A DNA stretch of 64,000 bases from Eukaryota sp. GEM-RC1 (taxonomy: Eukaryota), in contig JAUFOQ010000001.1 of the NCBI GenBank assembly GCA_040285855.1, positions 1,240,001-1,304,000 of the forward strand, written 5' to 3'. A program made the translations under genes and the position numbers. Under the pieces are notes generated by a model. That model did no database searches. It was not told the DNA's origin and saw only the letters and a program-made list of their open reading frames with translations. Every line of letters begins with the position of its first letter. Position 1 is the first letter of the stretch. Below are positions 2 to 50,283 of this stretch, in pieces.

Positions 2-460
2 CAATCCACATACATAGACTGTATCAATGTTCTTGCTTTTCAACAGATCGTTTAGTGAAGTATGATACTGCTTTTCTTGGTCAAAGAAAGCGCTGTAAGA
101 GTCAACATGTTGGTGGATTCCTTTTCTAATGATGGGAGTTTCTGGGTGAACTTCGAGTTGAGGATGGAGTTTTGCTCCCTCGGTGCCCTGAATGCAATGA
201 TCGGGCCACAGCATCTGCACCACTCCAGATGGAAGAGTGATCTGTTCCAGAGGTTGTTTGTTGTGAGTGGAAGCAAAGGAACAATGACCAGCTGGATGCC
301 AGTCCTGTGTTATTACGATTTGCTTAAAAGGGAGCTTCTGGAGTCTGTTTATGGTTTTGACCACGTCATTTGTTCCAGGAAGCCCCATGCTTCCGCCTTC
401 ACAGAAATCGTTTTGAACGTCGACGATCAAAAGAGCAGCAGTGGAAAATGCAGCAGACAT
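2..460 (-). CDS. pncA: Nicotinamidase/pyrazinamidase (isochorismatase-family cysteine hydrolase), 3' end runs off the window
   Basis: Not in the ORF track. My translation from ATG 460: MSAAFSTAALLIVDVQNDFCEGG...TQDWHPAGHCSFAS...LWPDHCIQGTEGA...RKGIHQHVDSYSAFFD...VYVCGL, which are the PncA/Pnc1 motifs. Confidence 0.93.
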   Translation of the reverse strand, partial: MSAAFSTAALLIVDVQNDFCEGGSMGLPGTNDVVKTINRLQKLPFKQIVITQDWHPAGHCSFASTHNKQPLEQITLPSGVVQMLWPDHCIQGTEGAKLHPQLEVHPETPIIRKGIHQHVDSYSAFFDQEKQYHTSLNDLLKSKNIDTVYVCGL

Positions 461-1164
461 TGAGTCAAGAAGATGAGGGGAATTTTAATATTTTTCGTGA
501 TCTAACATTTGAGTCGATAAGATATTTCCCTTCATTGATTCATTTCTCATTGCTGAAAGTGTAAAAATGGCTTTCTTAAAGAAATAAAAGCTTCAATATT
601 TGACTTGTTGTACATGTATATATGGTAGTGTTTGTTTTAGGTGTAGAATTGGTATTTTTTCTGCAATTGTTTGCACATCTTCCCATAACTCTATATCCTG
701 TTAGATTCAACAATTGAACAGCTCAGTTCGGACTATCATTCCTAGAAACTAACTGACCCTTTTAATGCTTCCCGTAAAACATGTAGTGAAGATTGGTCGC
801 TAACTGGATGATGGCACTGGCAATGATGACTCCTGCTCATCTCAAAGTAACGTAACAATATACTAGCTGATCCGTGCTCATAATGTCAACCTTCGTGCAG
901 AAGCTTATGCCGAGAATAGTCCTTATTGATTCCGATCAATGTTAACCTACTCAAACTTCTCCTCAATTCTTCTCTTGAAGTGAACTATGAAGTACATAGT
1001 AGTTCTTCATCGACCATCGTCTTTTATTTCTCTCTTTGAAGCGGAGCTTGAGTCTGTTTTCTTATACGTGAACTAATCTTTGAAAAGTGAACAATTTCTT
1101 AGTAGTTTACCTCCTGTAATTACATTGCTCTAAAACGACAAACATCAATCTCAGTTTGAAACAT

Positions 1165-1900: not shown

Positions 1901-4727
1901 TCAATCAATAGGTTGATACTGAAAACCTCTTCTAGACAAATGATCCCAAGATAAATTACCTTTCTCAGTTTCCAAATAACGGGCTTCATTTAGATCAGGT
2001 TCACATCCTATTCCATTCCTGTAAAAGTGAATAAGTATCTTCAATTCCAACCGCATTTCTCAATTCTGCTGATTGTTTTATCAGTTCAAAAGCTCTTTGA
2101 TTGTTGCTCTCTACTCCTCTTCCTAACCTATACATTTCTCCCAGGTAAACCATTCCAAGGGAACACCCAGCATCAACAGCCATTTGGTAGTACTTCACAG
2201 CTTCAGTAATGTTCTTTTCAACTCCTTTTCCAGTTTCATAAGACCTACCTAGGACAGTCATTGCAGTAGCATTTCCCAATTCTACAGCAAGCCTCAACAA
2301 TCTGATACTTTCTTCAAGATCCTGTTCAACTCCATGACCGTCTCTATAACAAACTGCCAACATATAGAGACCTTCAGAGTTGTTTAAATCTGCAGCCTTT
2401 TTGAACCAATTAAAGGCTTCTTCATAGGACTTGGTGACACCTTCACCTAGGTAATGGGAGTAACCTACATTAACTATAGCAAAAACATGTCCCTTGTCAG
2501 CAGCTTTTTTAAAATATTCGACAGCTTTTTCATAACTCTTTTCAAATGCTAGACCCGAATAATAACAACTTCCTAACATGAAAATTGATTCAAGATGATT
2601 CACATTAGCTGCTTTTTGAAAAAGAGCACATGCTCTCTCATAGTTTTGAATTTCATTAAAAGGTACAACCCAGTTCTAAACATTTCATCACATGCTTCAT
2701 CCATTGGTTGAACAAGAGACTTGAACTCATTGAGCTCTTGTTCACGTGATGGCCAGAAGTGAAGAAAGTTCTTCGAAACAAAAGAGTTGACAAATGGTTT
2801 CAGAGAGTCGTCACTATTTAATTCCCCAATAACATGTAGAAATTCAAATCTGTTTTCATCCTTGACAGTAATAGATTCTACGCAGTTAGCAAAAGAATCA
2901 ACTGTCCAAGAAGTATGTAATTTTTGAGAATTCTTCCAGGAATTCACAAGGCTTCTTGATAGCCATACGCTGTTATCACATTTACCAGGCAGTTTTGAAC
3001 AAAGAAGTTCAAGACAAGTAGGTGAGAAACAAAGACCAGTTGTAAATGGCAAAGAATCAGACAAGTCAACCATAGAAAAGATTTCTCACAGAAAATTCAA
3101 CTGTTTAAAAAAATGTTGGTATCGATCAACTTTTAGCAATATTCCAAGGAACCAACAAGGTGGAATATTACCAAAATGATCATTCCCTTTGAAGAGCTCC
3201 AAGGACCACTCTAGAAAAGTTGCCGTGAAATCTGAATCATTAAATAGACGTTCCAAGATTTGAAATACGTCATCAAAATCATACTCAGAAGTTGTGGAAG
3301 AATTTAATACTAAGGAAAAGTCCGTAGCAGACAATCCTTGGGTATCATACAGTTCCATTAAACAGTGAAGTAACCAGTTTAAATCAATAAATGGAAATAA
3401 AAAAACGATAAAGGAAATCCTTAAGGGAATTGGATTTTCAGAAAGATCATAGAGAACTTTGAATATTTGAATATTCTCATCAACAAAATTCAGCTGGTTC
3501 CTTTCGTTCGAAATTTTTAATAAATAAACCAAATCTGCTTCTCGTAGAGAATTAGTTTCAAGGAAATGTTTAGAAGCGAATTTGAGATCATCGACTAGGA
3601 AATAAACTGACAGCTGAAAGAAATCGAGAATATTTGAAATATTAAATTCAATTGATTGACATTGAAATAATTCGAAAAAACGATTGAAAGAATGTTCAGA
3701 GACGCCAGGAAATTGATCAGCAAATTCAAAATTACGAACATTTGAATCTGCAAATTCACAAGTAAAAGAATTAAAGAAAAACATTAAAAATAATGATAAT
3801 AAAACAGAATTCATAGTAATAGACGTGTTTCCGTAAGACACACGTACATCTCGAGAACACGACGTCATCATTTTTGAAGCTAGAGTGGTTAAATCCAATT
3901 GAAAAGTGTTATCCTCAAAGTTGCCCAATCCTTTTGTCATTCCCTCAGTAACAAACTTACTTAACTCCTGGAACTTTAGAAGAGAAGCAATGATAGAAAA
4001 AGAGGAAGAGACTGGGTGGTAATAGTAAGAGAATTACCATAGAAAGTGGATATAACCAAAAAGAAGAGGTCAGCATCTGTAAAAGGAAGTAGAGATAATT
4101 CTATTGAAGAAGATCGTAGAAGCATCTCTTGGAAATAAGGACTGAAGGAACTGATCACAAAAGAATGACAATGGAAGGGAACACAGTCATAGAGAATGAC
4201 AGTGTCGGTAAGAAGATTGTCTTTTGAAAGGAGTGAAGCTTGTTACAGAAAGCAGTAGAACTGAAGGAGAAAGTGTTTGATTGAACAGCCGTAGATTCTT
4301 CATCAAGTACACACTTAAAGAAATCAGACGAAGTATGAGGTACCACACCACCAACAGGAATCCTAATAAGAGCCAATGTTTCCCTAAGTTCTTCATCATT
4401 CCGAAAAGCTGTGATGATGTGATCAGGAGTAATACGAGACTTCCTTTTGTCTCTAGCAACGTTACCAGACAATTCCAAAGCTTCAGCTGCTAGATATTCA
4501 AGAACAGTGGTAAGATAAACAGCCGCTTCGACCCGAATATGTTCATGATAGTGACCTTTGCGAAGGTAACGACGAACACGGCCCACAGGGAAAGAGAGAC
4601 CGGCTCTTTGGCTGGTTTGTTCATCGTCCTCCATTAACTCTCCCATGACGTCACTCTCATCATCATCTTCCATAACAGCATGTGTTCGGAGATCTTCTGG
4701 ACCTGGGGAGTCAAAACCGGAGATCAT
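1901..4727 (-). CDS. Histone H2A-fold / BTB / BTB / helical / Sel1-repeat fusion protein, copy 1 (several frameshifts)
   Basis: Joined ORFs 4155..4883, 3976..4158, 3086..3940, 2600..3073 and 2001..2603. H2[70 protein letters not shown] motifs follow, then Sel1 repeats ([18 protein letters not shown]). Breaks near 4222 and 4000 are 1-nt homopolymer differences versus copy 2. Confidence 0.85.
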
Positions 4728-5177: not shown

Positions 5178-5526
5178 CAGTGAACGCTAACACGTTCAAA
5201 AATCGAATCTAACACGTGTTAACCCGTGTTAACACGTGTGAACACGCGTGTTACGTGTTACGTGTTTGCGTTACAAGAATTTTTCCTGGTTTCTGGTTCA
5301 ACGATAAATAGCTCGTTTCTTCTACACATTCGCCCCTACGATGCTCTACATCACTGTAGCAAACTTCTAAAACGGCGTCTTTCATTCTTTTAGTAGCAAA
5401 ATGCACTTTCACATCCTTCAGATCGAAAATAGTAACCGTTATTTACGTGTATGAAATCAGCCAAATTCTAACACGTGTTAACACGCGTGTTACGTGTCAG
5501 GCCGTGTTACGTGTTAGCGTTCACTG
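5178..5526. mobile_element. hAT-type MITE
   Basis: TIR CAGTGAACGCTAACACG...CGTGTTAGCGTTCACTG, 8-bp TSD GATGTTGT (5170-5177 and 5527-5534), subterminal AACACG/CGTGTT repeats. Confidence 0.92.
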
Positions 5527-5721: not shown

Positions 5722-6111
5722 TGTTACCACTAAGCTAATAGCGCTATTAGCTTAGTGGTAACAAGTTGCTAGTGCCCTTCGTCGGGTCTTTCTTACGCTA
5801 CCAGCTTAGCAGTACCTCCAGGAAATAGCACACCTCTGTGTGGTCCATGTTTTAGGACATACTATTACTGTTCGACCTCACCCGGACTCGAACCTTCGAC
5901 CTTCGAAGAGCAGCAGAAGAAGACCTTCTAATCGAAGGTCGAAGGTTCGAGTCCGGGTGAGGTCGAACAGTAATAGTATGTCCTAAAACATGGACCACAC
6001 AGAGGTGTGCTATTTCCTGGAGGTACTGCTAAGCTGGTAGCGTAAGAAAGACCCGACGAAGGGCACCAGTGTTACCACTAAGCTAATAGCGCTATTAGCT
6101 TAGTGGTAACA
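5722..6111. repeat. Nested palindrome/foldback: two 42-bp perfect palindromes flanking a 135-bp inverted repeat
   Basis: TGTTACCACTAAGCTAATAGCGCTATTAGCTTAGTGGTAACA at 5722-5763 and 6070-6111. Arms 5772-5906 and 5932-6066 are reverse complements with a 25-nt loop. The arms contain GGTTCGAGTCC (B-box-like). Confidence 0.95.
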
Positions 6112-6764
6112 GGAGCAAGTAAAGTGCCATAAAGTGGGTTAATTTTTTGTGATATGTCTATCTTAAATACATACCTACAAATGTAATCCAATCTCTCGAT
6201 ATCATTGGTTAAAATTGTGTAGTACTGTAGCTACGAACTGGGCTGGTTAGAACAAGACAATTGATTATGAACAAATGTAAATTGATGATATTTTTCTCAA
6301 AAAACTTGGATTTATCAATAAATATCGTGTTTTGATGTTGAATAAAAGTGAAGTACAATTCGTGTTGGGTTGATACATATATTATAATAACACTTTAAAA
6401 ACACGCCAGACAGGCCATCAGCCATACGTCCATACGCGTATGGTGAGTATGGCAGTCGAAAAATTGCATTATGGCATAACGCTGGAATATAGTGTTTGTT
6501 TTGGATGTAGATTTAGTATTTTCTCCACAATTGTTTGCACATCTTCCCATTTCTCTACATCCTGTTTGATTCAAAGATCGGAAAACACAGTTACACCGGC
6601 AGCAGTAATTAGTCTCACTATAAAATTAGTCTCAGTGAGACTAATTGTGTCCTGAAATTTCAAGCATACCAACTTTTTCATGTTTCTCTATTCAATGTAG
6701 TGGTCGACTAAACATCGTAAACAACTGTGTTCACACTGATTCTAAATATACACACTGTTTTTAC

Positions 6765-8051
6765 TAGGGCTGTCAAATGACGAGTCACAACGCGTCACGA
6801 CTTGAAAAATTGACGTCGACGTGACGCGACTTCCCAGAAATTCAAGTCGACTTGAAGTCACGTCACGTCACGTCACGTTGTGACGAGTCATGACGATTTA
6901 CAAAATATACCATTTGTTTATCTTTCTCTAGTGCTACTACAAACGACTTTAACTCTTCCTCTAAAACGATCTAATGGATCCGATTGTGTCGTGGAACACG
7001 ACAGTTACAACGCCGCCTCTTCTCAGGGCGAAATTGCTAGAAGCTATTTCTGTATTCCAGCCACTGCAGTGCCAGCAGAACAGCTATTCTCGCAAGTATT
7101 GCAATAAATATATCATAATAATATATTGTTGGCAAATCGCCGTATCAGTATTTATTGCAATTATTTCTGATAATATATTCCCTCTGTTTTCTGACGTGAT
7201 TCCATCAAATAAGGACATTTCAGTGTTCTTTGCAAACATTAATGTATCTCTTCTGTTGAAAACGATCTTTCTCCTGACAGCTTCTATTACTGTGACGAAA
7301 AAAAAACATATTTCAAAGCTTTCATCGATCAATCATCTGATTGTGTTGATCTTTTGTATACCAGCTACTTCGAACCCCGTTGTAGGTCTGTTCTCAAAGT
7401 TGACTTCGGCTGACAAATCGCAGATCCGAGCTCCACCCTTCTGCCCTTGGTGGTGAGGTCTTTTTGAACGTGAACAGTATTGTATTGAATTTCGACCCTG
7501 TGAGAGCTATTCTTCTTTGGAGTGTCTGCCTATTTAATTAAAATAAAGTTCTTTCTTCTTTTCCTATCAATTACTTATCATTGATAAATACTGATACATC
7601 ACAATAATGTATTTTCAGCAATTTATGACAGAAAATATATTGCAATATAGTTTTGGACATCACTGGTTCAGACAGCAAAACGACCATCTTTGAATGATGA
7701 TATCGTTCAAGCACTTCTATGTTGGCAGTCATGGTACAAATTAGATATTTAGATACATAGTCTTAAATTTGGTTCTTTTATGTTAATAAAGAATGTATTG
7801 GATTGTTCTATGGTATCAATGTCAATACTACTTACCCAATAATATCCCGAAATTCAACAGAAAGTAGCATCAAGTCGTGACTCGTCATTACGTGGTTTCT
7901 CGTTGCTCTAAGTCACGACTCGTCATGACGAGTCACGACTTAGAGAATGTAAGTTGACGTAACGTGACTTGAAATAAGTACACGTCGACGTGACGAAAAG
8001 TTGCGTCACGTTATGACGCGTCATGACTCGTCACGTTATTTGACAGCTCTA
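6765..8051 (+). mobile_element. Non-autonomous hAT element with transposase C-terminal (dimerisation domain) remnant
   Basis: TIR TAGGGCTGTCAAAT/ATTTGACAGCTCTA, 8-bp TSD GTTTTTAC (6757-6764 and 8052-8059), GTCACG subterminal repeats. IARSYFCIPATAVPAEQLFS at ~7030-7090 resumes as LVQTAKRPSLNDDIVQALLCWQSW at ~7663. Confidence 0.9.
7095..7665. mobile_element. Nested hAT-like element fragment inside the 6765-8051 element
   Basis: It interrupts the hAT dimerisation motif. The right end ...ATATATTGCAATATAGTTTTGGACATCACTG resembles the TIR of the 13718 element, and there is an internal FCIPATSNPVVGLFS hAT motif. The left TIR was not found. Confidence 0.6.
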
Positions 8052-8688
8052 GTTTTTACATTACAAAAACATCCAAGCTAGTATTGAACAACCGTTTGGA
8101 TGACTATTTTTGGACACGAAAGTTCATTTTGATATAACAAATATTGAAATAAAATCGGGTTCCAAGAGATCAGAATCCTCTGACCACATTAATTGCTTTT
8201 CCCTTCTTTAATCCGTTAAGCTCGACTCACACTCGCCACATGGAATGCACATTTAGAGTAGAATATATTTCTCAGCACATTGTATCATTGTATAGATGAT
8301 ATATGTCAATCCATTGACATAACCATGAGCATTCTGACAACAATGCTCATCGACAATAAACTCAATGACTCCAACAGTAGGACTACCACTATTGCCCTGA
8401 TATCTCAACTTCTAAGCATACTCAGTAACTTCCAGACAGGGAACTTGTACAACACAACTTCATCAGAATGACGCCTGATGACTTTTACGTTTATTCGTGA
8501 ACAACAATAGTAATATCAAATGTTGACTATACCGCCAATGGATAAACTACATGAAGTATAAGAGCTATGTGAAAAAGATGTATTGAACGGAAATAAGTGA
8601 GATTAAAACTATAATAAGCATAATTAATCAAAAGAAAACTGAAAGTGTGAACTCAATTGATGTTAATTCGTAGTTGAAATAAATATGA

Positions 8689-11469
8689 TTACATAAGAGC
8701 TCTTCTGATCAAATAATCACGAGTGACATTACCTTTCGTGTTTTCGCAAAAACATGTTTGCTTTAAATCACGTTCACACCCGAGCCCATTCTTGTAACAA
8801 TTAATTAGTTTTTCAATTCCAGTATCATTCTTCAATTCTGCTGACTGATATATCAGTTCAAAAGCTCTTTGATTGTTGCTCTCTACTCCTCTTCCCTAAC
8901 CTATACATTTCTTCCAGGTAAACCATTCCTTGTGAACACCCACCGTCAACAGCCATTTGGTAGAACTTGACTGCTTCAGCAATGTTCTTGTCAACTCCTT
9001 TTCCAGTTTCATGAGCCATAGCTAAGCTGGTCATTGCTCGAGCATTTCCTAATTCAACAGCAAGCATCAACAATCTGATACTTTCTTCAAGATTCTGTTG
9101 AATTCCAAGACCATCTCTATGACAAACTGCCAACATATAGAGACCTTCAGAGTTGTTTAAATCTGCAGCCTTTTTGAACCAATTAAAGGCTTGTCGATAG
9201 GATCTAAAGACACCTTCCCCTAGGTAGTGGGAGTAACCTACATTAACCATGGCAAAAACATGTCCTCCGTCAGCAGCCTTTTTAAAATATTCAGCAGCTT
9301 TTTCAAAACTCTTACCAACTCCTAGATTCAAATAGTAACAACTTCCTACTTTGAAAATCGATTCAACATGATTTAAAGAAGCTGCTTGTTGAAAAAGATT
9401 AAAAGCTTTCTCATAGTTTTGCTCAACATCAGTTTCATTAATGAAATACAATCCAGTTGCAAATATTTGATAACATACTTCATTCAACTCATTGAGCTCT
9501 TTTTCACGTGATGGCCAGAAGTGAAGAAAGTTCTTGGAAACAAAAGAGTTGATGAATGGTTCCAGAGAGTCGTGACTAATTAATTCCCCAATGATATGTA
9601 AAAACTCACATATGTCATCATTATTGACATTAATAGATTCAACACATTTGATAAGAGAATCAACTGTCCAATGAATACCGAATTCTTGAGAATTCTTCCA
9701 GGAATTCACAAGTTTTCTTGCAAGCCATAAACAAAAATGACAAGGAAGTTTTGAACAAAGAAGTTCAAGACAATCAGAAGAGAAACAGAAATCAGATGTA
9801 AAGTCCAAGGCATCAGAAATATCGACCAATGCAAGAATTTCAGAGAGAAAATTTAAATGTTTACAAAACTGTTGGTTTCTGTCAACTTCACGTAACATTG
9901 AGAGCAGCCAGAAAGGGGGAATATTATAAATATGTTGATCCTGTTTGAGAAGTCCCAATGACCAATCTACTAAAGTTGACACGAAATCTGAATGCCGAAA
10001 CAGTGGTTTCAAAATTTCGAAAACACAATCAAATTTAAATTGAAGAGAAGTTGTGGAAGCATTCAGCATTGATGCAAGTTCAGTTCTAGAAAACCCTTGA
10101 GAATCATAAAGTTCCATTAAACAGTGAAGTAACCAGTTTAAATCAATGTAAGGAAATAGAGAAACGATGAAAGAAACCCTTAAGGGAATAGGTTTTTCAG
10201 AAACGTCCCAGAGAATCTTGAAAATCTGAACATTCTCATCAACGAAATTGAGCTGGTTCCTTTCATTTGAAATTTTTAACAAATTTACCAAATCTATTTC
10301 TGACAGGGAATTGTTTGCAAGAAACTCTTTACAAGCCACATTGAGCTCATCCACTTGAAAATAGACTGACAACTGGAAAAAATCGAGGATATTTGAAATA
10401 ATGAATTCAATTGATTGACAGTGAAATAATTCAAAAACAAAGAGAATGATTCTTCACTGACACCTGGAAATTGATCAGAAAATTCAAAATTGCGAACATT
10501 TGAATCTGCAAACTCACATGAAAAGAATTAAAGAAAAACATTGAAAATAATGATAATAAGACAGAATTCATATCGTACATCTCGAGAACATGACGTCATC
10601 ATTTTTGAAACTAGAGTGGTTAAACCCAATTGAAAAGTGTTATCCTCAAAGTTTCCCAGTCCTTTTGTCATTCTCTCAGTAACAAAGTCACTTAACTCCT
10701 CAAACTGAAGAAGAGAAGCAATGATAGAAAAAAGAGGAAGAGACTGGGTGGTAATAGTAAGAGAATTACCATAAAAAGTTGATAGAACCAAAAAGAAGAG
10801 GTCAGCATCTGTAAAAGGGAAGTAGAGACAATTCTATTGAAGAAGATCGTAGAAGCTTCTCTTGGAGATAAGAACTGAAGGAACTGACCACCGAAGAATG
10901 ACAGTGGAAGGGAACACCGTCATAGAGAATGACAGTGTCGGTAAGAAGATTGTATTTTTGAAAGGAGTGAAACTTGTGACAGAAAGCAGTAGAACTGAAG
11001 GAGAAAGTGTTTGATTGAACAGCCGTGGATCCTTCATCAAGTACACACTTAAAGAAATCAGACGAAGTATGAGGTACCACACCACCAACAGGAATCCTAA
11101 TAAGAGCCAATGTCTCCCTAAGTTCTTTATCATTGCGAAAAGCTGTAATGATGTGATCAGGAGTAATACTGCACTTCCTTTTGTCTCCAGCAACGTTACC
11201 AGACAGTTCCAAAGCTTCAGTAGCTAGATATTCAAGGACAGATGTAAGGTAAACTACCGCTGGAGCTCCAACACGCTCATAATGATGTGGTTTTCGGAAA
11301 TGACTACGGACATGACCAACAGAGAACATAAGACCGGTCCTTTGTTCTGATTGCTCATCATCCTCCATTAACTCTTCATCTAGCTCATTCTCATCAACAT
11401 CTTCCATAACAATGCAGGTCGGGGGTCTTCAAGACCTGGGTACTCAGCCTCAACAATAGTGGAGGTCAT
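8689..11469 (-). CDS. Histone H2A-fold / BTB / BTB / helical / Sel1-repeat fusion protein, copy 2 (frameshifts; possible pseudogene)
   Basis: Joined ORFs 10802..11407, 10528..10791 and 8858..10372 plus a frameshifted tail to TAA 8689. Colinear with copy 1; has a ~26-nt deletion near 10572 relative to copy 1. Confidence 0.82.
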
Positions 11470-13717: not shown

Positions 13718-14569
13718 CAGGGACTGTCAAAAATATATTGCAATATATTGCACGACCAAAATGATTTGCAATACAGTATTGCAATACTGCAATATATTGC
13801 AATAATTGGTAGCAATATAAATATTGTTGACGAGAGTATTTATTGTCTAAATTCCACTGATAAACCATAAGAACATCATTAAGTGATATCTAATTTGAGC
13901 AGTTTCTGATTCACCGTCTTGTGAACCAATCTAATGTCCTAATACTCTCTAGTTACAGAGAGAAATAGTTGATTGGCAAAATTCCGTTTAGATAAGCAGT
14001 GTTTTGACAACACTTGCGCCATTCGAGCTCCACTGAAAAGTCGTTTTGCAACATTTATATGTTTCTGGAAAGAAATTTAATTCAATTTTTTTATTCGAGT
14101 TAAGACATCTTTAAACAGAGGAAACAGGTCCAGGACGTTCAGCAATTTCTTCAACTTCATCATCATCACTACTCACGTCATTTACTATCACAGAATTACA
14201 TTGATGGAGTTGAGTTCCGGGAGATAGTTGAATAGTAGGCTTTTGCCTTCTGTTTTCGAACGGGACTAGAATGATGCGTCATGTAAGATGATGTGAAGAA
14301 TGACATTAGGTTTACATTTGTTAGTCAGATCTGACAGATACTACTTACTTGTAGTATGGACTTTCAATTGTACACAGAATAATCACTGGTGTATTATGTT
14401 GCTAAAGAAGTCTCAAGTAACAGAAAAACATTGGTCAAAAAATATTGTTCAAAATTGAAATTATTGCAATATATTGCAATACCAAATGAGGCTGCAATAC
14501 AGTATTGCAATACACAATACACAATATTGCAATTATTGCAAAAGTGCAATATATTTTTGACAGTCCCTG
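13718..14569. mobile_element. hAT-type MITE
   Basis: 25-bp TIR CAGGGACTGTCAAAAATATATTGCA, 8-bp TSD ATTGTACC (13710-13717 and 14570-14577), ATTGCAATA subterminal repeats. Confidence 0.93.
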
Positions 14570-15657: not shown

Positions 15658-17927
15658 TTATTCTGGTTTATGCACCTGCTTATGCTGTTCATGTTGTAAC
15701 GCTACGAATACATCCTGAGTGGCATTGGTTACGTGATCCTTTACTAATTCTTCCAACTTAACTTCTCCCCCAATTTCTGGTTGTGTGGAAGAGCAGTTCA
15801 ACACTCTAATGACTACTTCCTGTAAAGTAGGGTCTTCAGGATTCATCTTGACGAAAGCCAGAGATTCAGACAGCAATTGTCCAAATGTAGTTTCAGGAGT
15901 AGCAAATACATAACAAGGATGTGAAAAGTATTGCACCCATCCCTTTGTAGCATGATGGTAAACTGTTGGAGCAATCATATGACGAATAAGAATAGGCGTA
16001 AAAAAGTTGGGACAGGTGCTGTGAGGAATTGTACATAAAGATTAGCCAAATTACTAGGGATATTAGAGCTATCATCTAGCAACTCGAACTTCTGTCCAAC
16101 AGACACCTGACGAGCAACATAGGGCTCAGTGTACTCATGGAACATAATCATTTTTGATGGACGAACGTCATCCGATTGTAAGCCAAAGGCAGTTCTGACA
16201 CTTTCTCTTAGATTGACGACTAAACATTCCTTAGGGACCCAAAGTGATTGACCTTCAGCTTGATAATAGGAAACTTGCCTTTTAGTGAAATCACCAACTC
16301 TGATTACTGTAATGTTCTTCATATGATCTTCCATATCACGTGCAAAAGGTAAAGCTTTCACATAAAGGTGAGTTCCAATAGTATCTGAAAATTTGGATTT
16401 TAAAATTGATCGAAGATCTGGAGTTTCAGAAGGAGAAGTCGACATTACAGAAGGACAGTGATATTGACGGGATGAGTAATTAGCTGGAGAATGGAAAATC
16501 AAATTCTCAGCAGGATGACGTTTCAAATCATCAAAAGAGCTCACCAAGGTTTCAGCAACTTCTTGATAAGTCAAGGTTAAATCCAAACAAATAGTCCCAA
16601 GCTTTGTTTCTTTTCTACTATAAACAGAAGGTCCTGTGGAGTGTAACAAAATAACTTGTAGGTTGTGTTGTTGACATTTAGCAGTATAGAACTGTTCTAG
16701 AGTTGGGGATTCGTTACCTTTTTGACAGAGTGAAGAGGGCAAAATAGGAAGTCTGACAACCTTTGTTTGAACTGAATTTGACAATCTAGTTCACATCTCC
16801 ACAGCTTCTACTTCCAATTGTTCAACCTTTTGTTGTAGATCTACCACCTCTTTTGATAACGAGTCATTACTGCTCTTCAAACGGTCAATTTCAAAGTCCT
16901 GTGATTTAGAATGATCTTTAAACCACGAAAGTTCTTCAAAACACTGAGAAATATCTATCTGAGGATGCGCAGGAAATTCCAAATTATTTAGAATACTTAA
17001 AATTTCTACTACTTGAGGACGATTTGAAGGAGTGACAGCCATACACTTAGTAATGATATTCTTCACAGTCATTGGTATAGAATCATCAAAAACAAAAGGG
17101 ACCTCCTTGATCTTAGCTCCGACCAATCAGACTAAGGACAAACCCTTAAAGGCAAGTTGATTGGAAAAGAGTTCATACAGCACGATTCCAAGGGCATAAA
17201 CGTCACTCATGGGGGAAAACTCGCCATCGAACTGTTCCGGCGCAGCGTATTTGTGAGTAATGGCAGAGCTACGGGTGAAAGTACAGGTTGCAGAAATGTT
17301 TCTAGATGTACCAAAATCAGCGATTCTAACTTTACCATCTACCAATAGAATGTTTGCTGGCTTAAGATCTCCATGTACAACGGATTTAGAGTGGAGGAAC
17401 TTGACAGCTTGGCATAGTTGTATAGCATATTGAACAGTTTCATAAGAGATAACATTTGGAGTGGGAAGCGAGGAAGAGGCTTTCTCCATAACAATGCCAA
17501 TCTTGTCATTGAAGAAGGTAAGTCCAAAGACACGTAGTATACCGGGATGGTTAAGTTGTAGGAGAAAATTGAGTTCTTTTTGGAGCTTGAGACGTCCTTC
17601 TTCAGTCAGTGATATCATTTTAACGGCTATGGGTAGCTGGAACCATTCGGCAGCATAGACTTCAGCAAATCCACCTTTGGCGATCTCTTCACCGAGAACA
17701 ATTTCAGATTCATCGATTTTAGGGCATAGGTCTCCCTGTCTAGTCGCTTCAACGATCCCTCTCAGTGCAAAATTGATTTGTCTTCCCTCTAGACAAGGGA
17801 TACGACATAGAGGACAGTTGTTCAAAAGTTCAGAACACGAGGAGCAAACAGTGTGACCGTTATTACAGATCAGTAAAGGGAGATGTTCAGCAAGATCGAA
17901 AGGTTCACAGCAAGATAAGCATTCCAT
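15658..17927 (-). CDS. RING finger - TKL-like protein kinase - coiled coil - USP7-like C-terminal UBL region (2 in-frame TGA and 1 frameshift; possible pseudogene)
   Basis: RING C..C...CNNGHTVC..C......CPLC. Kinase GGFAEVY, IAVK, HGDLKPAN, DFG, YAAPE, DVYALG. ORFs 17127.., 16791.. and 15975.. are in one frame separated by TGA. The tail (LTYQEVAETL; YHH..FSHP..ETTFGQL..VALQH) resembles the USP7 C-terminal UBLs by eye. Confidence 0.75.
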
Positions 17928-18242
17928 TAAGACGAAGGGAGATTTGGACTTGACAATTTCAATTTCTTGTGCAACTCTTTTTATAGAAGCATTAGGATAA
18001 CCAACCTAAATCAGTTATTATGTATGGTATGACTTTGTATAACGTAACATCTTAGATTAATAAATTCCAAGCGTTTGTGTACTTAAGTTGTGTTGGCCAC
18101 AGGTGTTATGATGTGGCAGTGTTGAAGTATGGTGTTGCCATTTATAAAATATATTATCCTTTCCCCTTGCATGTCTACCTATTCAGGTATCAATAATTAT
18201 TGTCCTTCTCGTGGTAGAAGCGACGAAGATTCGACAGCTCGT

Positions 18243-21200
18243 ATGAGTCCTCGAACTGAAGATCCCTCGACAGCTTCTAGAAGCCCTCGAGATGAAGGAG
18301 AAGCGACAACCATGTTTGGTCCTCGCATTCGAAGTCCTTCTGGTTCCCCACCTGGTTCCAGAGGAGATGAAGCTCCATTGAAAGATTCCCAGACAACCAA
18401 TCCTGGTCCTCTGGATGATTCCCAGACAACCTCTCAAGGTCCTCTGGATGGTTATATTTCCCAAACAACCCCTCAAGGTGCTTTGGACGAATCAACTCCC
18501 AAACAACCCCTCAAGGTGCTTTGGATGTCGCTGCAAACCAGACAACCTCTCACGGTCCTCTGGCTGGTTCCTCTGTCGTATCCCCCTGACGTCGTTCAAA
18601 TTGAAGATTTGTCACGGGAGGAAGAACGTGAGTTCCATAAACTACGTCTCGAAGCAACGCAGAAAGAACTAAAAGCTGCAGCCGACAAGGTCAACACGTT
18701 GTTATATGCCAAACCTACTCATGGTTGGGCTATTCAGTCCCATAAACATATGATCGACGAGGAGCGCAGGAGATATAACAATGCAGAGAAGGCAAAGCTA
18801 GTCCAACGCCAGTTCCCCGAGTCATCTCGAAACCCGCAAAATTGGCACAGAGCAGCGATACCGAATGAGCTCATTCCGTTCGCCAGTAGCCAGGACTCGC
18901 TCATTGGAATTGACGATCGCCAACTGTGGCAAATGGCCAAGTTCGATCCCTTCAATGTGCTCCTTCGTCAAAGATTGAAGGAATCCAAGCACTTCCTAAT
19001 CAGAAATGTACCTCCTATGACTCCCCCAGAAGTAATCACTCGTTACCTTGCAGGTAAGTTTGACCCACGTCGCGGGGACACATATAGATTTCCCGTTAGT
19101 GAATCCTGGGATCCAGCTCATGGAATCTCAGTCGAACCACTGATGGAAACGGTTCATCCATCCGGACAGAGTTTGGTATATGAGTACCCAGCATGGTACC
19201 AATACAGCTTGTCCACTAAGAAAGCTGCATGCAAAGATGTTGCAATAAGCACAGCGTGGCTTCCCGAAACCCCCGTATACGACAACTTACCTCCTGGCAA
19301 ATCGTCGGAGCAAGTTTATAGTATTATGCCCCCACTAGATATGGAACAATCGTCCCTTTCGGAATGAGAGGTGACCAATTGATCGATCCTACTGAGGGTT
19401 CTAATAAAAGGGAACGGCAAATCCATGCTGCCCTGCATGATGACCGCGAACTTCTTGATTCAACGAAACTTCCGTCTCAAGAAGAATATCCAGGTCAAAG
19501 CAAACGCCCTGAAACAGTGATCGTTTACAAAATTCTGGACCGAACCTTGGGTACAACTGAGGAAATCAAGAAGTCCGAATTCGACGAACTCACTCGTCAG
19601 GAAAGTAGTGCTTCTTCGAGAGATCCCTTGACAACAAGTCAACTGGAGAAAACTCCAAGAGTGAAACAGAAGAAAAGAACTACTGTTCTACGTTCACCGT
19701 CACTATCACCGACACCACCCGGATACAGACCTCCAGTGTATAGTCCTAGTCCTGCTTCAGCACGAAAAGAATTCGAACGCCAACAAGAAGAATGGAAACG
19801 CCGAGAAGAGAGTCGTCGAGAGCCATCCCCATCTGAACCCGAGGAACCAAGCTCCTCCGAAGAAGACCAAGGAACATCTCATCTGACCTCCTCTGCTATC
19901 TCTGGTCGTGGTCACCCCAAAACGTCTAAATCGACTTTAAAATCTAAAAACAAATTCCGTCCAAAAACTCTAGACAGTGAGGACCCGAAGAAAATTTTAA
20001 ATTTTATCTTAGATTTCACGTACTGGTCAAAAGAAATTCGTGGTCAAGGTGATGGCCCCTATTCTACTGAGTTAGGTGAACCTGTACATGGCTTCGACCT
20101 AGTACGCACTTCTCTCAAGGAAGTAGACCCATCTGAATGTTCTAAGTTTATTAGCACAGAACTGGTTTACTCCTGGAGAATGCTGAATGAATTGGAGATG
20201 GAAGGTACGAGTGATGAGAAACTTTGGTTATACATCCTTCTACTGACTCAATTTCCATCCTCTTCGACGGCTATCCAGGCCCTCAAGAGAGTTCAGTGCA
20301 CTCTTAGCCAAGAGCCCACTCAAGCAATCAATGCCTATTTGAAAGGTGTGATTACAATCATTCAACGGTCAACTGCTGTTCCCACAGTCCACCAACACGA
20401 ACGCAAACATGTCCCCGCAAACCTAATTGCCGACGTCATGTTAAAGAAGTTAGATCCCCAAGGTGAATCATCCCTATTAACGGATCTGAAAATTCATTGG
20501 GTTGATCGTCTCACTTCTAGAGACAATCAGTACGAATTGCCTCAGTTCATTAATGAACTCAAGGCCGCGTACATTGATTGGAAACGCTCTTCCGCTACTG
20601 TTAGCACGTCTCGCCCAACTGAAAAGCCCGCCGAAAGACGACAACACAGAGGCTCCAAGAAAAGAGATCAATCTCAGGACCAAAGAAGAGGTCCCAGAGA
20701 CGAAGTCGTTTGATACAATTGTAACAAGAAGGGTCATCTTGCCAAAGACTGCCGCTCAAAGAAAGCAGAGCAACCCCAACGACAACACAAACGTAGAGCT
20801 GGTGACGATAGAAGTTCAAAAAAATCAAATAAAGATAGTAACTACATTTTTCAACTTAACAAAATCGACAACACCCCTCTAGAATATTCAAACCCCATAG
20901 CGTCCTTAGACTCACTGGGTAGTGGTAACAAAATAAACAGCTTACAGAACCTAGGGGTCGATGATAGTGGAAAAGGGTCCCTATCTTTTCGACTGTTGAT
21001 CAACAATGTGCCAGTAACCGGCGAATTTGACACAGCTGCAACATGCTCTGTCATTACACAAGATTTAGCCCGTCTCTGTGAGAATGGATATGATCGATGA
21101 CAGCATCGATTACCTTTCAGCGAATAATATTCGTGCAACATCCCTGGGGAGTGCAATTGGTACACTGACGTTCAACGTCGGGAGTCTGGCCAACAACGTT

Positions 21201-24200
21201 CACATGAAGCACTGTCTTCCTATAATTCCTGGTACCGGAATATTTTTAATAGGACGTGACCTGCTTAACGAACTTGGACTCCTGACGGATGATGGTTTAG
21301 TCATTCAACTAGACAAAGAGCACCGCACTATCCTGAACGCAGAGAGTGAATTTGACGCAAGGATGATAACTCCTCCAAATTCCATCGGGAATCAATCAAT
21401 TTTGAATGTTTCTAACGATGTGAACGGCGACTCTCAATCAAATCCAAACTCAGGTTCCGATTTTGAACGATTCATAGATGATTCTGGCTGTATCATTCGT
21501 CTTGACGACACCACTCGAAGAGAGACATTGCTGAAAACACTAAGTGAGTACGCAGACGTTTTTTCAGAAGACATTGACCCCGATGGCATAGACTGCTCTC
21601 CGATGTCAATCCCCTTCTATGACGAAAACGTCACTGTCTTTCGTCCTCCCCGGAAGCTAAATCCCACAAAACAACGGGTAGCCGAGGAGATTTTTAATGA
21701 ATTAATACGTAAAGGATGGGCCGTACCATCAAACGGAAAGTTCAGCAGTCCCATAGTCTTGGTCGTCTACAATGACCACCGCAAGCCTCGTTTAACTGGA
21801 GATTTCAGTGGACTTGATGGGATCAATGCTAATACCAAACCTGTGAAGCCGAACCTTCCAAGGATTTGCGATACCCTGGAGTTCCTATCGAAAGCAAATT
21901 TCATAGGAACACTCGACCTCCCAAAAGCCTTCTGGCAGCTAAAAGTAGCTGACGAGGACGTCAATAAGACCACTCTGTCTATTCCAGGTATGTCAATTAG
22001 CTTCAAACGAGCATGTTTTGGTTTAAAGAATGTACCTGCAATCTTCCAAAACATCATGATGGAAATCTTCAGTTGTGAAGGTGTGTTCATTTATATCGAC
22101 GATATAATTGTCATTGGCAACACCTTCGAAGAGTTTCTTTCAAGAATCGCAAACGTACTTGAACGCGCCAGACGTTACCGAGTACGGTTTGGCTTAAAGA
22201 AGTGTCATTTCACGACTTCAAGTCATAAAATAAAGATTCTAGGCAGCGACTTTGTGAACAAAACCCGTCACATTGACGAGAGTAGGGTCTCGGCTTTAAA
22301 GAGTCTACCGTCCCCCAAGACACTTCCTGAGGTTCGAAGTCTCATTGGCGCGTTGAATTACATCCGTGATTGGATTCCGAATTTCTCGGACCTGATGTCA
22401 CCGATTATTAAACTAACCAGAGACAAACCAAAGAAGATTTACTGGACAGACGAACATGAAAACTTATTAAACGAAATAAAACGGTTGATAATCAATAACA
22501 TGGCTCTAGACTTACCTGACGAAGATAAGAACATTATCATATCGACAGACGCATCGGACATCGCCGTAGGAGGAGTCATCTGGCAGGAAGAAAACCCCCA
22601 GCTCCACCCGGCACTCCACTGAAGGATCGCAAGGTAAAACCGGTATCCTTCTATAGCCGACTCCTTAACGACAGTCAGCAAAATTGGTCAGCTATCCAGA
22701 AAGAGCTGTACGCAATCTTGTTGATTCTGACTGAATCAAACCTAGAAAGCTTCCTCATAAGTAGACACTTGGTGATCTTCACTGATCACAGGAACCTTTC
22801 CTTTCTCATATCCGCTCCAGAAAAGAATAGGATCGTAAAACGTTGGATCCCCATCTTATCCGAGTTTAGTTTTGAGATTGAACACGTTGCAGGAGAAGAC
22901 AACCACTGGGCTGACATGCTCTCTCGCGTTATTGACCGCAATCCAGTGGAAACAATCAAATCAGTAAATCTGATTGAACGCCACACCGAGGATCACATCA
23001 CACTCAATCGTAATGATTTGAGATATGATGAAGCCAACTACATCGAGTCTCAACCACATGACAACTCAGTTTATGTAATTAGCAACCTCCGTGAACTTTC
23101 AACAGATGGCAAGTTGCCCCTGTTCAACTCATGGCTATCAACCATCAGAGCTGAGCAGCTAACGGCAATAAAAGCAAAAGACACTTTATTCACAAAAGCT
23201 AACCTTTGTCCTAAGAGCAAGACTTACGTTAACAGCAAGAATAAGATACTGATACCGTCGAGCTTACGTAAGAAAGTCCTCTACATGCTCCACGGACTCG
23301 TCCAGTCTGGTCACCCTAACTTGAAAAATAGTTTGGAAAAGCTGTTCAATAGTGGCTACTTTTGGCCTAGCATGAAGGTTGACATGATCAACCACGTGAA
23401 TCGATGTCCATCCTGTCAGAAAACGGCACCTGTCCGTAAACTGGCAATTGAGCCGACGGGTTCTCTATGGGCTAATCGACCTTTTGCAAGACTTAACGTC
23501 GACACAATAGGACCTCTGCCAAAAGATCAAAATGGAAACCAGTTTCTACTGGTATTTGTTGACTCGTTCAGCAGATACACCATTTTAAGCCCCCTCGAGG
23601 ATCTGAATAGCACTGAAGTAGCATATCGCCTGGTTTGGGATGTAATAGCTATTTTTGGTATACCGTTCTGTATCCATAGTGATAACGGCAAGGAGTTTGC
23701 TAACGCTACATTCGAGGCAGTTTGCAACCTACTGGCCATTGAAGTCAGTCGATCGATTCCTCATTTCTCTCAGAGTAATGGTCTGGTGGAACGACGACAT
23801 AGAGACGTGCTGCAAAGTCTACGCCGTCTTCTTGTCGATTTCAATGATTACGACAATTGGTCAACATACATTCCTTCGGTTCAGCTCCAAATCAATTCAA
23901 CTAAGAGTAGTGTAACGGGACATTCCCCCCTACGAGTTGATGTTTGGTAGCGACATAAGCCCAGGTGCAGACCCCGGTACTATGTTAAAAGCGATCGAAT
24001 GTTCCACTTCGGAAATTTCGTTCATCGACGACATGGCTCTGAAACTGAAACGCCTTAAAGAAAAGAGAGAAAAGGCAGGGGCTCGACAATCGAGTAAGGC
24101 TCCTTCTAAGAAATCTCAACCTAATCCCTTTAAGGCAGGGGACCTTGTGCTCAAGGCAACTAAGTCATCCAAGCTACATGGTAGTTATTGTGGACCATTC

Positions 24201-24629
24201 TTAGTAATGTCAATTGATTCCAATACTTCCATGTCTATCAAGAATTTGATCACTGGTCACGTTGGTAAAGCAAGCATCCATCAATGCAAGATCTATCAGA
24301 CAGATTTACCCAATGATGATGAGCTTCACAAGGCTGTTGCTTCGGGTGATACTGAAGAACATATCTTGGTCAAAGTCCTTGATCGATATGATACCCCTGA
24401 AGGCGAGTATTGCACAGTAGTCTGGTTTGGTGGCGAACACTCAGTAGTTCCCCTAAAAGACATCACGAATACGAAAGCATACTCAGAGTTTATTAAATTA
24501 AATAGTAATAGTAGTAATGACTCCACTGTCCACAGGCCTAAGAAGAAAAGAGTATCCAGCGAGCAATCTCAGAAAGCTAAGTCACCTGTAGCCAAGAGAA
24601 CAAGGAACTCGAAAAGAGAGAAGAGGTAG
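18243..24629 (+). CDS. Gag-Pol polyprotein of element 1 (broken by homopolymer indels and one TGA)
   Basis: Zinc knuckle *YNCNKKGHLAKDC, protease GEFDTAATCSVI, RT LDLPKAFWQ/FGLKN/YIDD, RNase H TDAS..TDH, integrase H..C..C, VDTIGP, SDNGKEF, NGLVERRH, and a chromo-like C-terminus. Start codon uncertain. Confidence 0.9.
18385..18565 (+). repeat. Degenerate 33-39 bp tandem repeat in gag N-terminus (SQTTxQGPLD)
   Basis: About 5 copies of CCCAGACAACCTCTCAAGGTCCTCTGGA-like units. Confidence 0.8.
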
Positions 24630-25229
24630 TGTTGGCCACAGGTGTTATGATGTGGCAGTGTTGAAGTATGGTGTTGCCATTTATAAAATATATTATCCTT
24701 TCCCCTTGCATGTCTACCTATTCAGGTATCAGTTGTCAGAAAAGCATCCACAATTTCCGATTTCTTCTTATATTTATTTCTACAAGTACTATGGTTTTCT
24801 AACATTTAACGGAAGTACTCATTGTTGTCAGTACATGTATTTCGTGTTGGAAAGATTTGATGTGAAGCTAAGAATCTTGAAGCCATGTGTAATGCATCAT
24901 GACAGCAATTGTAGTTTCAATTCTCGAAAGAACGTCACGCCCAGGTAAACTTCAAATGCTACAACTACATTAATTATACTGTACAAATATGATATTGAAA
25001 TATCAGATACGACAGAAAACAACAATTTTAAATTTTTGTCCTTTCAGTATAGAATAAACGTCAGATTCATTTTATAGACCGGTTACACACCATAACAAAC
25101 AAAGTTAAGAACAATCAAAAGAATTAAATCATACCCAACAACAACAAAAAGAATCTAGACTGAAACAAACTAGATAAATAACAATAACAATAAAACAATG
25201 TACACAAAACTCCTCTTATCAGTACATAA

Positions 25230-28824: not shown

Positions 28825-29896
28825 CAGTCAACACTGTTTATAGCGGGACTATATGTACCTACGCTATATAGAGTTTCACGCTATATAGAATAAACGCACT
28901 GTGCAGCTCCATCCTCAACAATAAGTGTTTATTTCAAGCAGATCTAGAAAGAGCAAAGTGTGCACCATCCAAATATCCATATCGTGGGCATAACTACATG
29001 GGATGGAGAAGGAAGATTGGACACGACCAGAATCTGGGTGGTAAATATTTTGAACGGAATTCAAGAAATGATCCAGATACGGAAGTTCCAGTGGAGTAAC
29101 TTCATTCTGACCCTATTTGGACATGAAAGAGGGAAGAAAAGACATGATCATCTCGCTTAAACCTATGATGACACGATTCATCTTCCAAGCAACCTGTTGT
29201 ATCCCTTGTATCACCCTCCTCTCTGAGTAGATGAGTGATGAATCTCCAGAGATTATGAGAACGGATCTACCTCTTCCATCACCCCTTCTATTTCCCTATC
29301 AATTTGGGTTTGTTCTTTGGCTTCATGGTAGTTCTGTATAGTTTCTTGTTGGTTCTTCCCATAAACACGATTCAATAAGGTTGTTTATCATAAATATATC
29401 TTCCGTCTACGTCTACGTTATAGCGTTGGTTTAGACCATGTGTTATGCTCTTTTAGGGAACTCTTTTGGAGAGTATGGAGGGTTGCTAGATAAAAAAGTT
29501 CTTGTGGTACGGCAATCAACATCCGACAGGGTTTTGATGGAGGAGTTACATTTGTTAGAAGCTGTAACACCAAAGATAATCTGAGATGAGCAAGATGTGA
29601 AAGGGATGATGTTGACGAGGCAGCTAAGACGGGGATGTCAGGGGTATCAAAGGAAATATGTCCGGTATATGTGAAGTCAAGAAAGAAGGTAATACAACTT
29701 CAAGTTGATGATCAAAAGATGTTATCAGAATGAACGCCAGCAATACGACAGTTTATTACCAAAGAGAACTACTGATAGAGGCGACAGACAGGATGTCATA
29801 TGGGAAAAAGGAGAGGAAAATGTCGGACCGTGAAAAGTGCACGCTATATAGAGTTTTACGCTATATAGAGTTTCACGCTATAGACAGTTTTTACTG
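28825..29896. mobile_element. Non-autonomous Tc1/mariner (pogo-like) element
   Basis: Imperfect TIR CAGTCAACACTGTTTATAGCG / CGCTATAGACAGTTTTTACTG, TA on both sides, subterminal CGCTATATAGAGTTTCA repeats at both ends. Confidence 0.8.
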
Positions 29897-30289
29897 TACT
29901 ATGATTTCTCTAAGAGTTCTTGGTAATTTCGTTCTAATTAAATATTTTTCTAATTCAAAAACAGATTGGACTCACTGTTTTTATTTTATACTTCAGAAGT
30001 TTTATCTTGTTACTAATCGTTCTTTGTTGAGTTGCACTCATTATTTCAGATTTCTATATGGACTTTTGTTTTGAACATATCGTATGTGTAGTTCTATTCG
30101 ATGGAGAAAGGAATTTTTCACCATTCAAAGTTTCACTCGTTTACTTTTGTACGAAATTTACATATAATTTGAAATTTTGGGACGCTTTCACGTTACAATC
30201 ATAACTTCGAATCGTGTGTCAATCTTTTGGTCTATTATTATTATGATCACATTTAAACAAGACTTAAAATATTGATTATTTAAGTATTG

Positions 30290-31750
30290 TTGGAGTTTTG
30301 ATATACGGGCCAGAATTCGTGCCAGATTGGACTATTCCTAAGTTCGACAGTTTAGAGGTGGTCTTGCGTTGGTCTAGAGGAAGTTCACTACGTCTACATT
30401 CAGAGTCACGGAATTGGAGCATACAATGGCCCTTTTCGGCACTAATTCTACAGGCGTCAGGGTCTTTGTCCTCGGAACGGGTCTTCTCATGGTTTTGACA
30501 AATCATTCATTAGAAGAGGCTCGTCAGGGTTTTCCAGGTTCTGATTGAACCGGCATGAGAGGTCGGGAAGTTCAGGATTGGGAGAGGTCCTCCCAAGTTG
30601 CCGTATCTCTAAGGTTAGCGATTTCAGCGATTCGTTGTTCGTTCTGGACATTGGCTGGAGCAGATTGCCATCTATCGCACCAAGTGTCATAACGATCTTT
30701 GACTTCGAAGATCAATCCTTGGATGTCCTGAGAATCTTGGTAGAGAGGCCAACATTCGATCCAGATGGATACGATGCCTAAGTTTGATAGAATAGCTTTG
30801 ATAATAGCTTTGTCTGGAAAAGCAGTCATTGGCTTGTTCTTCGGCTTTATGGCTTGGGTTCTTTGAAGAACGCGATGTAATCTGCTGATGAAATCGCCCC
30901 ATCGTTCCTCAGGGTCGTTGATTGACCATTTCCCTTTGATTTTGTTCAGCTCATTGAGCGCAACAGTAACATCTGTATACTGCGTACGTCTGAGCAACGC
31001 AATCCAAAGTTGTAGTGGAGTGGTTCCGTTCCATTCGCGTGACATCGACAGTTGTGTCTGGATGTTGAACTTAACGAAACTTTGCACGTCCGTTAGGGGA
31101 TCTTCCCTGTGTTTGGTAGTTCGACTCTGTTTTAAATGATAGTTCAGATAATTATGAGTTTGTGCTGGAATACATCACCTATATCTATAGTAAAGCGCAA
31201 CTCAAAGTGACATTCAAGTTACAATATTGCCTTTTGAGGGGTCAGCTGTCTGGGAAATGAGTCTGAGTCAAAGAAATGACGAGGCCAACCGAAAGGGGCT
31301 CCAATAGGTGCCTTATGGTTAGGGTCGATAATACTCCATTGGAGGTAATCAGTGACGAAATCAACTATTGCCTCTGGTTTCCAAGCTCTCTAGCATTGTC
31401 GGTTGCAGTTTAGAGTTCTTTAACAAATCAACAGGAAACTTCTGCTGAAACGTCACCACTGGAGTGAGATAATGGTTAGGAGGGTTCCTCTACCAGATAG
31501 GAGGCTGACATGGTCATGGGTGACGGAGTGCCAGATGAATTCGATATTGATGATGAACTTTGAATCTCAGTGAGATCTGTCATGGATAAAACATCATGTT
31601 GAGGGTTGGGAATTCGATTGGCATGAAGTGAGGATTTGGAAACTTCCTTCACTTTAGGAATGAGAGTTGATTGTGCTCTGCGAGCGAGTTCTTCTTCGTA
31701 TTCAACTCGAGCTCTGTGCTTAAGAGCGGTGGGCTAGATAACCAAGTCAA
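30290..31750 (-). pseudogene. Gypsy gag remnant
   Basis: ORF 30572..31087 (LWIALLRRTQYTDVTVALNELNKI..DPEERWGDFISRL..KAIIKAIL) aligns by eye with the capsid-like region of elements 1 and 3; a degenerate knuckle lies downstream. Confidence 0.65.
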
Positions 31751-50250: not shown

Positions 50251-50283
50251 ATTGAAGTGAAAGTATTTGAGTTCTACAACATC

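Follow-up and report, generated by a model that had tools for sequence, protein, structure and literature searches.

The analyzed window was a stretch of 64,000 nucleotides from a contig of Eukaryota sp. GEM-RC1, and its content was eukaryotic, with genes for capping protein beta, CBF/Mak21, a kinase and LTR elements. On its minus strand we found two copies of one gene, spaced by approximately 4 kb as a tandem duplication. Each copy encoded, in this order, an acidic tail, an H2A histone fold, a short linker, a first BTB domain (BTB1), a second BTB domain (BTB2), a helical region and five Pfam stretches of Sel1 repeats. Copy 1 extended from an ATG at 4673 to a stop codon at 1903-1901 and copy 2 from an ATG at 11407 to 8689, and the two showed 81% nucleotide identity over 2806 columns. 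An earlier, sequence-only reading had announced the second copy, which was present, and had given the first the span 1901..4727; the gene was found there, but its start codon was located at 4673 and not at 4727. The similarity between the copies stopped about 40 bases upstream of the ATG, which supports this codon as the start in both. The features were as follows:

1901..4673, minus strand: first copy (copy 1) of the gene for H2A-BTB-BTB-helical-Sel1, some 920 codons long and not intact in the assembly
4614..4673, minus strand: acidic N-terminal tail of copy 1, net charge -11 over 22 residues
4317..4613, minus strand: H2A histone fold and docking domain of copy 1, 62% identical to Skoliomonas H2A
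3960..4316, minus strand: linker and BTB1 of copy 1 (long form, without the phi-x-E loop), with frame breaks near 4221 and 4002
3560..3959, minus strand: BTB2 of copy 1, with F-A-D at the site of the Cullin-3-binding phi-x-E motif
2700..3559, minus strand: all-helical region of copy 1, modeled with confidence as helices in paralog P0002
3086..3088, minus strand: in-frame TGA of copy 1, within a stretch 70% identical to copy 2
2040..2650, minus strand: Sel1 repeats of copy 1 in five Pfam stretches, flanked by frame breaks near 2660 and 2038
3980..4379, minus strand: tract of near identity between the copies, spanning the H2A-BTB1 junction, with 17 mismatches in 400 columns where 66 were expected
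8689..11407, minus strand: copy 2 of the gene, with four one-base frameshifts and a 26-nt deletion
10805..11407, minus strand: open frame of copy 2 holding the acidic tail, H2A, the linker and most of BTB1, 201 amino acids in a single frame

The H2A-BTB fusion is real. As the earlier reading had stated, the H2A of copy 2 was directly in frame with the first BTB, in the 201-residue frame at 11407-10805, and the H2A of copy 1 shared its frame with the linker and approximately the first 20 residues of BTB1. The fusion is thus independent of the frame breaks described below.

The remainder of the window was occupied by mobile elements and a small number of other genes. Three Ty3-like LTR retroelements were located at 18087-24731 (plus strand), about 29800-36900 (minus strand) and 38339-45173 (minus strand); two of the elements had very short LTRs of 106 and 91 bases, identical at 105/106 and 91/91 positions, and their genes were split over several frames. 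MITE-like elements whose terminal inverted repeats were 18, 20 and 25 bases long lay between and beside the two copies (5178-5526, 6763-8053 and 13718-14569), as did a nested palindrome of 390 bases at 5722-6111, whose 145-base arms were 97% complementary and which was flanked by two identical, perfect 42-base palindromes. Related BTB genes at 46573-49076 (plus strand) and at 53450-55009, 56649-58235 and 59874-61460 (minus strand) encoded a coiled coil and, at the C-terminus, a common beta-rich domain without a name in Pfam. The gene at 46573-49076 contained two BTBs and was broken, and those at 56649-58235 and 59874-61460 had arisen as an exact tandem duplication (about 3.2 kb). The genes for capping protein beta (49447-50313, minus strand) and CBF/Mak21 (50245-52551, plus strand) stood head to head with almost no gap and were apparently intronless. 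A RING and protein kinase gene at 15658-18005 (minus strand) was accompanied by further open stretches in the same frame, split by stops, and an isochorismatase/nicotinamidase-like gene at 2-484 (minus strand) was cut by the window edge.

The H2A fold that the earlier reading placed on the minus strand was recovered by independent searches. The Pfam Histone family (PF00125) matched with E-values of 1.2e-7 in copy 1 (above the cut-off) and 5.5e-5 in copy 2, H2A chains in the PDB matched the fused H2A at E about 1e-30, and all 97 of the 97 core columns aligned to H2As without gaps. In a profile search over proteins of 94-352 residues, which gave 1021 matches among 7990 candidates, the best single H2As among the best 120 listed were three from Skoliomonas species, ranking after the two pieces from the window itself and one tandem H2A. 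In a tree of the 97-column core, in which 25 of the 84 other H2As were drawn at random and no other metamonad was present, the fusions and Skoliomonas H2A lay on one side of a branch with an SH-aLRT of 94, unstarred; an earlier tree that kept the tails placed the fusions on a long branch, ungrouped. The fusions carried 5 of the 13 residues typical of Skoliomonas H2A. From these sequence comparisons, the fused H2A is likely a near-complete copy that originated from a host histone gene.

The two ends of the fused H2A differed from the host protein. The fused H2A ended at about the K118 position, without the C-tail of the host (Skoliomonas) H2A, which terminates in SQEI. The N-tails of the fusions were longer than the short N-tail of the host and had net charges of -11 (copy 1) and -13 (copy 2). 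The acidic N-terminus reported previously was therefore present, but the idea that it had replaced a basic tail did not stand, as the ordinary Skoliomonas H2A tail already has a net charge of -1. Among the Skoliomonas H2As, P0274, P0389-P0391, P0275 and P0276 all had no basic N-tail (net charge -1), and most copies ended in SQEI, a motif like that of H2A.X.

Sel1 repeats (PF08238) were detected in five stretches per copy with E-values of 2.7e-50 and 5.7e-39, fold matches agreed, and this part of the earlier reading was borne out. The tandem BTBs it described were recovered through paralogs, tblastn and a fold model, but not by Pfam on the window itself, where the best E-value was 0.017, below the cut-off, and no BTB was detected in 4033-3089; paralogs P0002, P0005 and P0008 each contained two Pfam BTB stretches with E-values of 1e-13 to 1e-15. 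The tandem-BTB model of P0005 had a mean pLDDT of 67, with BTB1 at 70-90 and BTB2 partly under 50, including the surroundings of its phi-x-D motif. This model best matched tethered BTB heterodimers, at an rmsd of 9-12 Å that was too loose to set the BTB1-BTB2 arrangement, and then BCL6-type BTBs and KBTBD2-CUL3. Most of the top fold matches were BCL6/ZBTB-type BTBs and not Cul3 adaptors; KBTBD2-CUL3 and KLHL3-Cul3 were also among the matches. The model of P0002 (mean pLDDT 68) revealed a helical solenoid leading into the Sel1 repeats and matched only Sel1/TPR proteins.

BTB1 was devoid of the loop that bears the phi-x-E motif, while BTB2 had F-A-D at this site. The register was set from the spacing given in the available text of PMC3616122 and not from a computed alignment. 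F180 and D182 of BTB2 were nearly invariant in 11 family rows, and the distant paralog at 46573 had L-A-E. According to the same portion of PMC3616122, loss of the phi-x-E glutamate abolishes Cul3 binding in KLHL3; BTB2 has an aspartate here. Helical hairpins followed BTB2 in both the P0002 and the P0005 models, no Pfam match to a BACK domain was found in the gene frames or the paralogs, and the word "cullin" did not occur in the readable supplements of PMC11316075. We read the BTB2-helical part as a probable Cullin-3 adaptor; the conservation of phi-x-D/E over divergent family members speaks for this, and the aspartate in place of glutamate, the low pLDDT at the motif and the prevalence of BCL6/ZBTB-type fold matches speak against it.

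Neither copy was a single open reading frame as assembled. In copy 1, the frame was shifted by single bases near 4221, 4002, 2660 and 2038 and interrupted by a TGA at 3088-3086, and copy 2 was broken near 10820 (+1), 10574 (-26), 10521 (-1), 10440 (-1) and 8897 (+1). The earlier statement that the frame runs without a stop to the Sel1 repeats was thus incorrect for both copies, with four frameshifts and a TGA in copy 1 and five frameshifts, including the 26-nt deletion, in copy 2. No intact H2A-BTB-Sel1 copy was found in any search made. Six of the eight one-base breaks, as judged by eye, fell in base runs, a sequence context that suits long-read errors and, equally, real slippage. The published assemblies of Skoliomonas, the genus of the nearest named relatives, are described in the accessible part of PMC11316075 as Nanopore R9 with Illumina correction. 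The TGA in copy 1 and the 26-nt deletion in copy 2 do not look like long-read errors. To examine whether failed polishing had caused the one-base breaks, we compared their positions with local identity and found no significant clustering where the copies were near identical (mean local identity 0.88 vs 0.84, p 0.086). Short introns were also considered; GT..AG spans crossed all five copy 1 breaks (1 to 12 spans each), but introns were rejected because the paralog proteins align through the break sites. Two LTR elements in the window were likewise split over several frames, and the capping protein and CBF genes were whole. Copy 2 has likely become a pseudogene recently. Copy 1 has either done so as well or, if its one-base breaks are sequencing errors, would encode an H2A-BTB-BTB-helical protein cut short at the TGA.

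A codon comparison of gap-free blocks between the two copies, with one 12-column block left out, gave a dN/dS of 0.39 over 884 codons (CI 0.31-0.49). The value for H2A was 0.33 over 96 codons (CI 0.18-0.61), and those for BTB1, BTB2, the helical region and Sel1 were 0.45, 0.26, 0.35 and 0.52, respectively. Outside the near-identical tract, H2A had a dN/dS of 0.29 (p 0.0008). Stops were found at 1 of 871 codons in copy 1 and at 0 of 872 in copy 2, compared with neutral expectations of 22 and 23 for drift over half the synonymous distance at assumed equal rates. From so few stops it follows that both frames remained open through most of their history after the duplication and that pseudogenization, if any, is recent. 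The codon comparison indicates that both frames were under purifying selection for most of that time. None of 2000 permutations was as low in mismatches as the junction tract at 3980..4379, whose near identity reflects either gene conversion or polishing cross-talk. Relative to the host H2A, 31 of 101 positions had changed in each of the two copies, 3 had changed in copy 1 alone and 15 in copy 2 alone, and 6 positions differed in all three proteins; the H2As of two Skoliomonas species differ at only 5 positions, as against the 31 changes shared by the fusion copies. The H2A of copy 2 was further decayed, with P26S, R29H, R32S, Y39H, R77S and E91K.

We then compared the fused H2As with the host protein at positions that were near-invariant over 237 H2As. 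Copy 1 was identical to the host at 47 of the 58 near-invariant positions and at 14 of the 43 variable ones (p 1e-6), and copy 2 at 37 of the 58 near-invariant positions (p 0.003), a pattern indicating that the H2A fold was kept as a fold. The motifs quoted earlier for the retained acidic patch were found, and patch and floor residues, including E61, D90 and E92, were kept at 9 of 9 positions in copy 1 and 8 of 9 in copy 2. The patch retention (P 0.008 against all positions, 0.13 among near-invariant ones) was indistinguishable from general fold conservation. LANA, IE1 and foamy virus Gag all make use of the E61/D90/E92 pocket, and viral arginine anchors bind this triad, according to the available part of PMC9040877. 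The H2B-facing core of copy 1 was identical to that of the host H2A at 22 of 33 positions. The near-invariant residues lost in copy 1 numbered 11, namely R42H, G44R, G46E, A53T, A69V, N73K, K74R, R81D, L85T, L96T and I111T, and we take eight of these 11 to lie in the DNA loops L1/L2 (five) or at docking positions facing H3/H4 (three). DNA contacts matched the host H2A at 8 of 15 positions in copy 1 and 6 of 15 in copy 2, and docking positions at 10 of 20; neither the DNA-contact nor the docking set was significantly depleted (P 0.19 and 0.21). R29, R32, R35 and R77 were kept in copy 1, and R29, R32 and R77 were absent from copy 2. Pfam scans of the gene's frames revealed no macro domain. As judged from these residues, a kept patch together with decayed DNA-loop and docking residues disfavors a giant nucleosomal variant, although the contrasts are statistically non-significant.

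A family search with the helical-Sel1 frame of copy 2 gave 496 matches among 7644 candidates of 292-930 residues. Among the best 120 listed, 11 paralogs other than the window's own covered at least 60% of the query, all from Eukaryota sp. GEM-RC1, and 0 of the 120 carried a Histone Pfam mark. The BTB-BTB-helical-Sel1 core thus appears, by sequence, to be an expanded family, whose only named source among the matches listed was one Skoliomonas species. Only 3 of the 11 paralogs reached the family C-terminus, and the distant BTB-BTB-helical gene at 46573-49076 (plus strand) had another C-terminus. The N-termini differed on this common scaffold: H2A in the two copies, nucleoporin FG repeats in P0005 and a TM2 domain in P0004, the last two being predicted proteins only. 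In P0005, the FG repeats (Pfam E 6.7e-25, 10 GLFG) were joined at the same linker as H2A, and, measured by path, no other row lay closer to the two copies than this paralog, the branch being unsupported. In P0004, TM2 took the place of most of BTB1, and this fusion may be a gene-model join. A GLEBS-like motif suspected in the N-terminus of P0003 was dropped, as the PDB gave a single chance match (E 6.7) and Pfam gave no support.

Further H2A-BTB proteins were sought in several collections. Among the best 150 of 5416 matches in 1.84 billion representatives, only the window's two pieces matched through both H2A and BTB1; the representatives are 50% clusters, whose members may hide further fusions. 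A search for the long fused form with the copy 2 open frame scored none of 1442 candidates and was weak, as it also missed P0005. Scans of metagenome and viral contigs yielded 593, 104 and 153 pattern matches, none of them a relative. The ESM Atlas gave no usable feature match, and its structure neighbors were H2A-fold clusters at a TM of 0.44, with macroH2A listed among the H2A-fold neighbors. No paper on an H2A-BTB fusion was found in the open-licence literature, outside which most subscription papers fall. The earlier claim that no H2A-BTB-Sel1 architecture was known agrees with these results. The architecture is apparently undescribed; it is real, comes from one genome, was once under selection and is broken as assembled.

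We tentatively propose, with somewhat less than even confidence, that the H2A fusion was an off-chromatin bait on a probable Cullin-3 adaptor, in a manner resembling TRIMCyp. In this mechanism, pairing of the H2A fold with H2B would take place away from chromatin, and the protein would be excluded from nucleosomes; the acidic tail would shield the face that binds DNA, and the acidic patch would stay exposed for docking proteins. BTB1 and BTB2 would form an intramolecular pair, and Cullin-3 would be engaged by BTB2 together with the helices after it, so that docked proteins, possibly of retroelement or viral origin, would be passed to a Cullin-3 ubiquitin ligase. The GLFG paralog P0005 suggests a bait theme, since Ty3 Gag3 binds the FG region of Nup116 in vitro (PMC5918913, available part), and the three LTR elements in the window were counted toward the same reading. 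The sequence-only reading had offered either such a decoy or a giant variant in chromatin; the decoy idea gained from P0005, while the chromatin variant lost ground through R81D, L85T, I111T and the L1/L2 changes, which are non-significant. By extension, a family of ligase adaptors in a free-living metamonad, bearing docking surfaces (the H2A patch, GLFG) could provide integrated-decoy immunity against retroelements or viruses, which we consider unlikely.

The same data can be read as a product of birth and death, in which H2A was swept in by recombination and kept for folding inside a useful BTB-Sel1 protein, both copies now being dead. Both copies are broken, of the 11 paralogs only 3 extend to the C-terminus of the family, the region is rich in mobile elements, and the fused H2As have accumulated 31 shared changes from the host, against 5 between two Skoliomonas species, with 15 unique changes in copy 2 against 3 in copy 1. 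We nevertheless judge this reading somewhat unlikely, as the protein could simply shed or skip an N-terminal domain that it did not need; instead, the H2A dN/dS of 0.33 equals that of the core (0.26-0.52) and H2A-invariant positions were preferentially kept. Distinctly unlikely is a histone sink or quality-control adaptor with an endogenous target, whose H2A fold would catch free H2B or H2A-H2B chaperones, to hold or degrade them, with the acidic tail standing in for DNA. The largely kept H2B-facing core (22 of 33 in copy 1), the tail charge of -11 to -13 and the decayed DNA loops would suit this role, but a housekeeping function would be expected in sister species, the matches listed gave no H2A-BTB protein other than the window's own two, and the GLFG paralog would be left unexplained.

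A giant macroH2A-like variant, which would sit in nucleosomes and tether the BTB-Sel1 module or an E3 ligase to chromatin, could explain the complete fold with its docking domain, the retention of R29, R32, R35 and R77 in copy 1 and the presence of macroH2A among the H2A-fold neighbors in the Atlas structure search; the fusion point at about K118, which we take to be as in macroH2A, was also counted in its favor. R81D, L85T, I111T and R42H/G44R/G46E in copy 1, the loss of R29, R32 and R77 in copy 2 and the strongly acidic tail make it quite improbable. That an H2A gene and a BTB gene were joined by mis-assembly or annotation is extremely improbable. One-base errors or lesions do occur elsewhere, as in the young LTR elements split over frames, and the junction lies in the near-identical tract; however, the frame continues across it in both copies, which differ widely from each other on either side of the tract, and the fused H2A has diverged by about 40% from real H2A genes and is without their C-tail.

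Core histones are rarely fused to large foreign modules, and here selection maintained the fusion as it diverged from nucleosome function. Were the bait reading true, a histone would have served as a decoy, integrated decoys in the style of TRIMCyp and NLRs would exist in an anaerobic protist, and the N-termini of the family could list what parasites target. If it is false, the locus would still illustrate cleanly how a histone gene was captured in a genome rich in mobile elements.

Several known systems can be compared with this architecture. MacroH2A is conserved and nucleosomal and has a basic linker; it likewise joins an H2A fold to a large C-terminal non-histone domain, whereas the present fusion, found in one genome, carries an acidic tail, and its docking domain is eroded. 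ABTB2/BTBD11 combine a histone fold, ankyrin repeats and a BTB in one chain, but in another order and with other repeats, while the H2A here is a recent, 62%-identical copy; no paper using the term "histone-fold" for ABTB2/BTBD11 was found in the open-licence literature. Plant NLRs with integrated domains carry swapped-in copies of host targets on a common scaffold, and decoy function is proven for several of them, but they are signaling receptors and not ligase adaptors. The Cullin-3 BTB adaptors (BTB-BACK-Kelch and MATH-BTB) share with this gene a BTB, helices and a repeat domain, as well as an expanded family with variable partner domains; in contrast, the present gene has two tandem BTBs, phi-x-D instead of phi-x-E and Sel1 instead of Kelch, and it bears a captured histone N-terminally. 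BTB adaptor families with fast birth and death in nematodes have been proposed to degrade foreign proteins (PMC4334554, available text, citing its ref. 41). In TRIMCyp, which joins TRIM5 to cyclophilin A, a host protein that is bound by parasites was copied onto a ubiquitin-ligase scaffold and acts as the recognition part (PMC4378998, PMC4936896 and PMC3159411, available parts). The proposal for the H2A fusion is similar in placing a copy of a host protein on a ligase scaffold, but TRIMCyp is a RING E3 with a C-terminal bait and a proven function, whereas here the Cullin adaptor is presumed, the bait is N-terminal and the function is inferred. Should the bait reading be right, the H2A fusion would act in the manner of TRIMCyp or of an integrated decoy; it belongs to neither family, and it is not a macroH2A.
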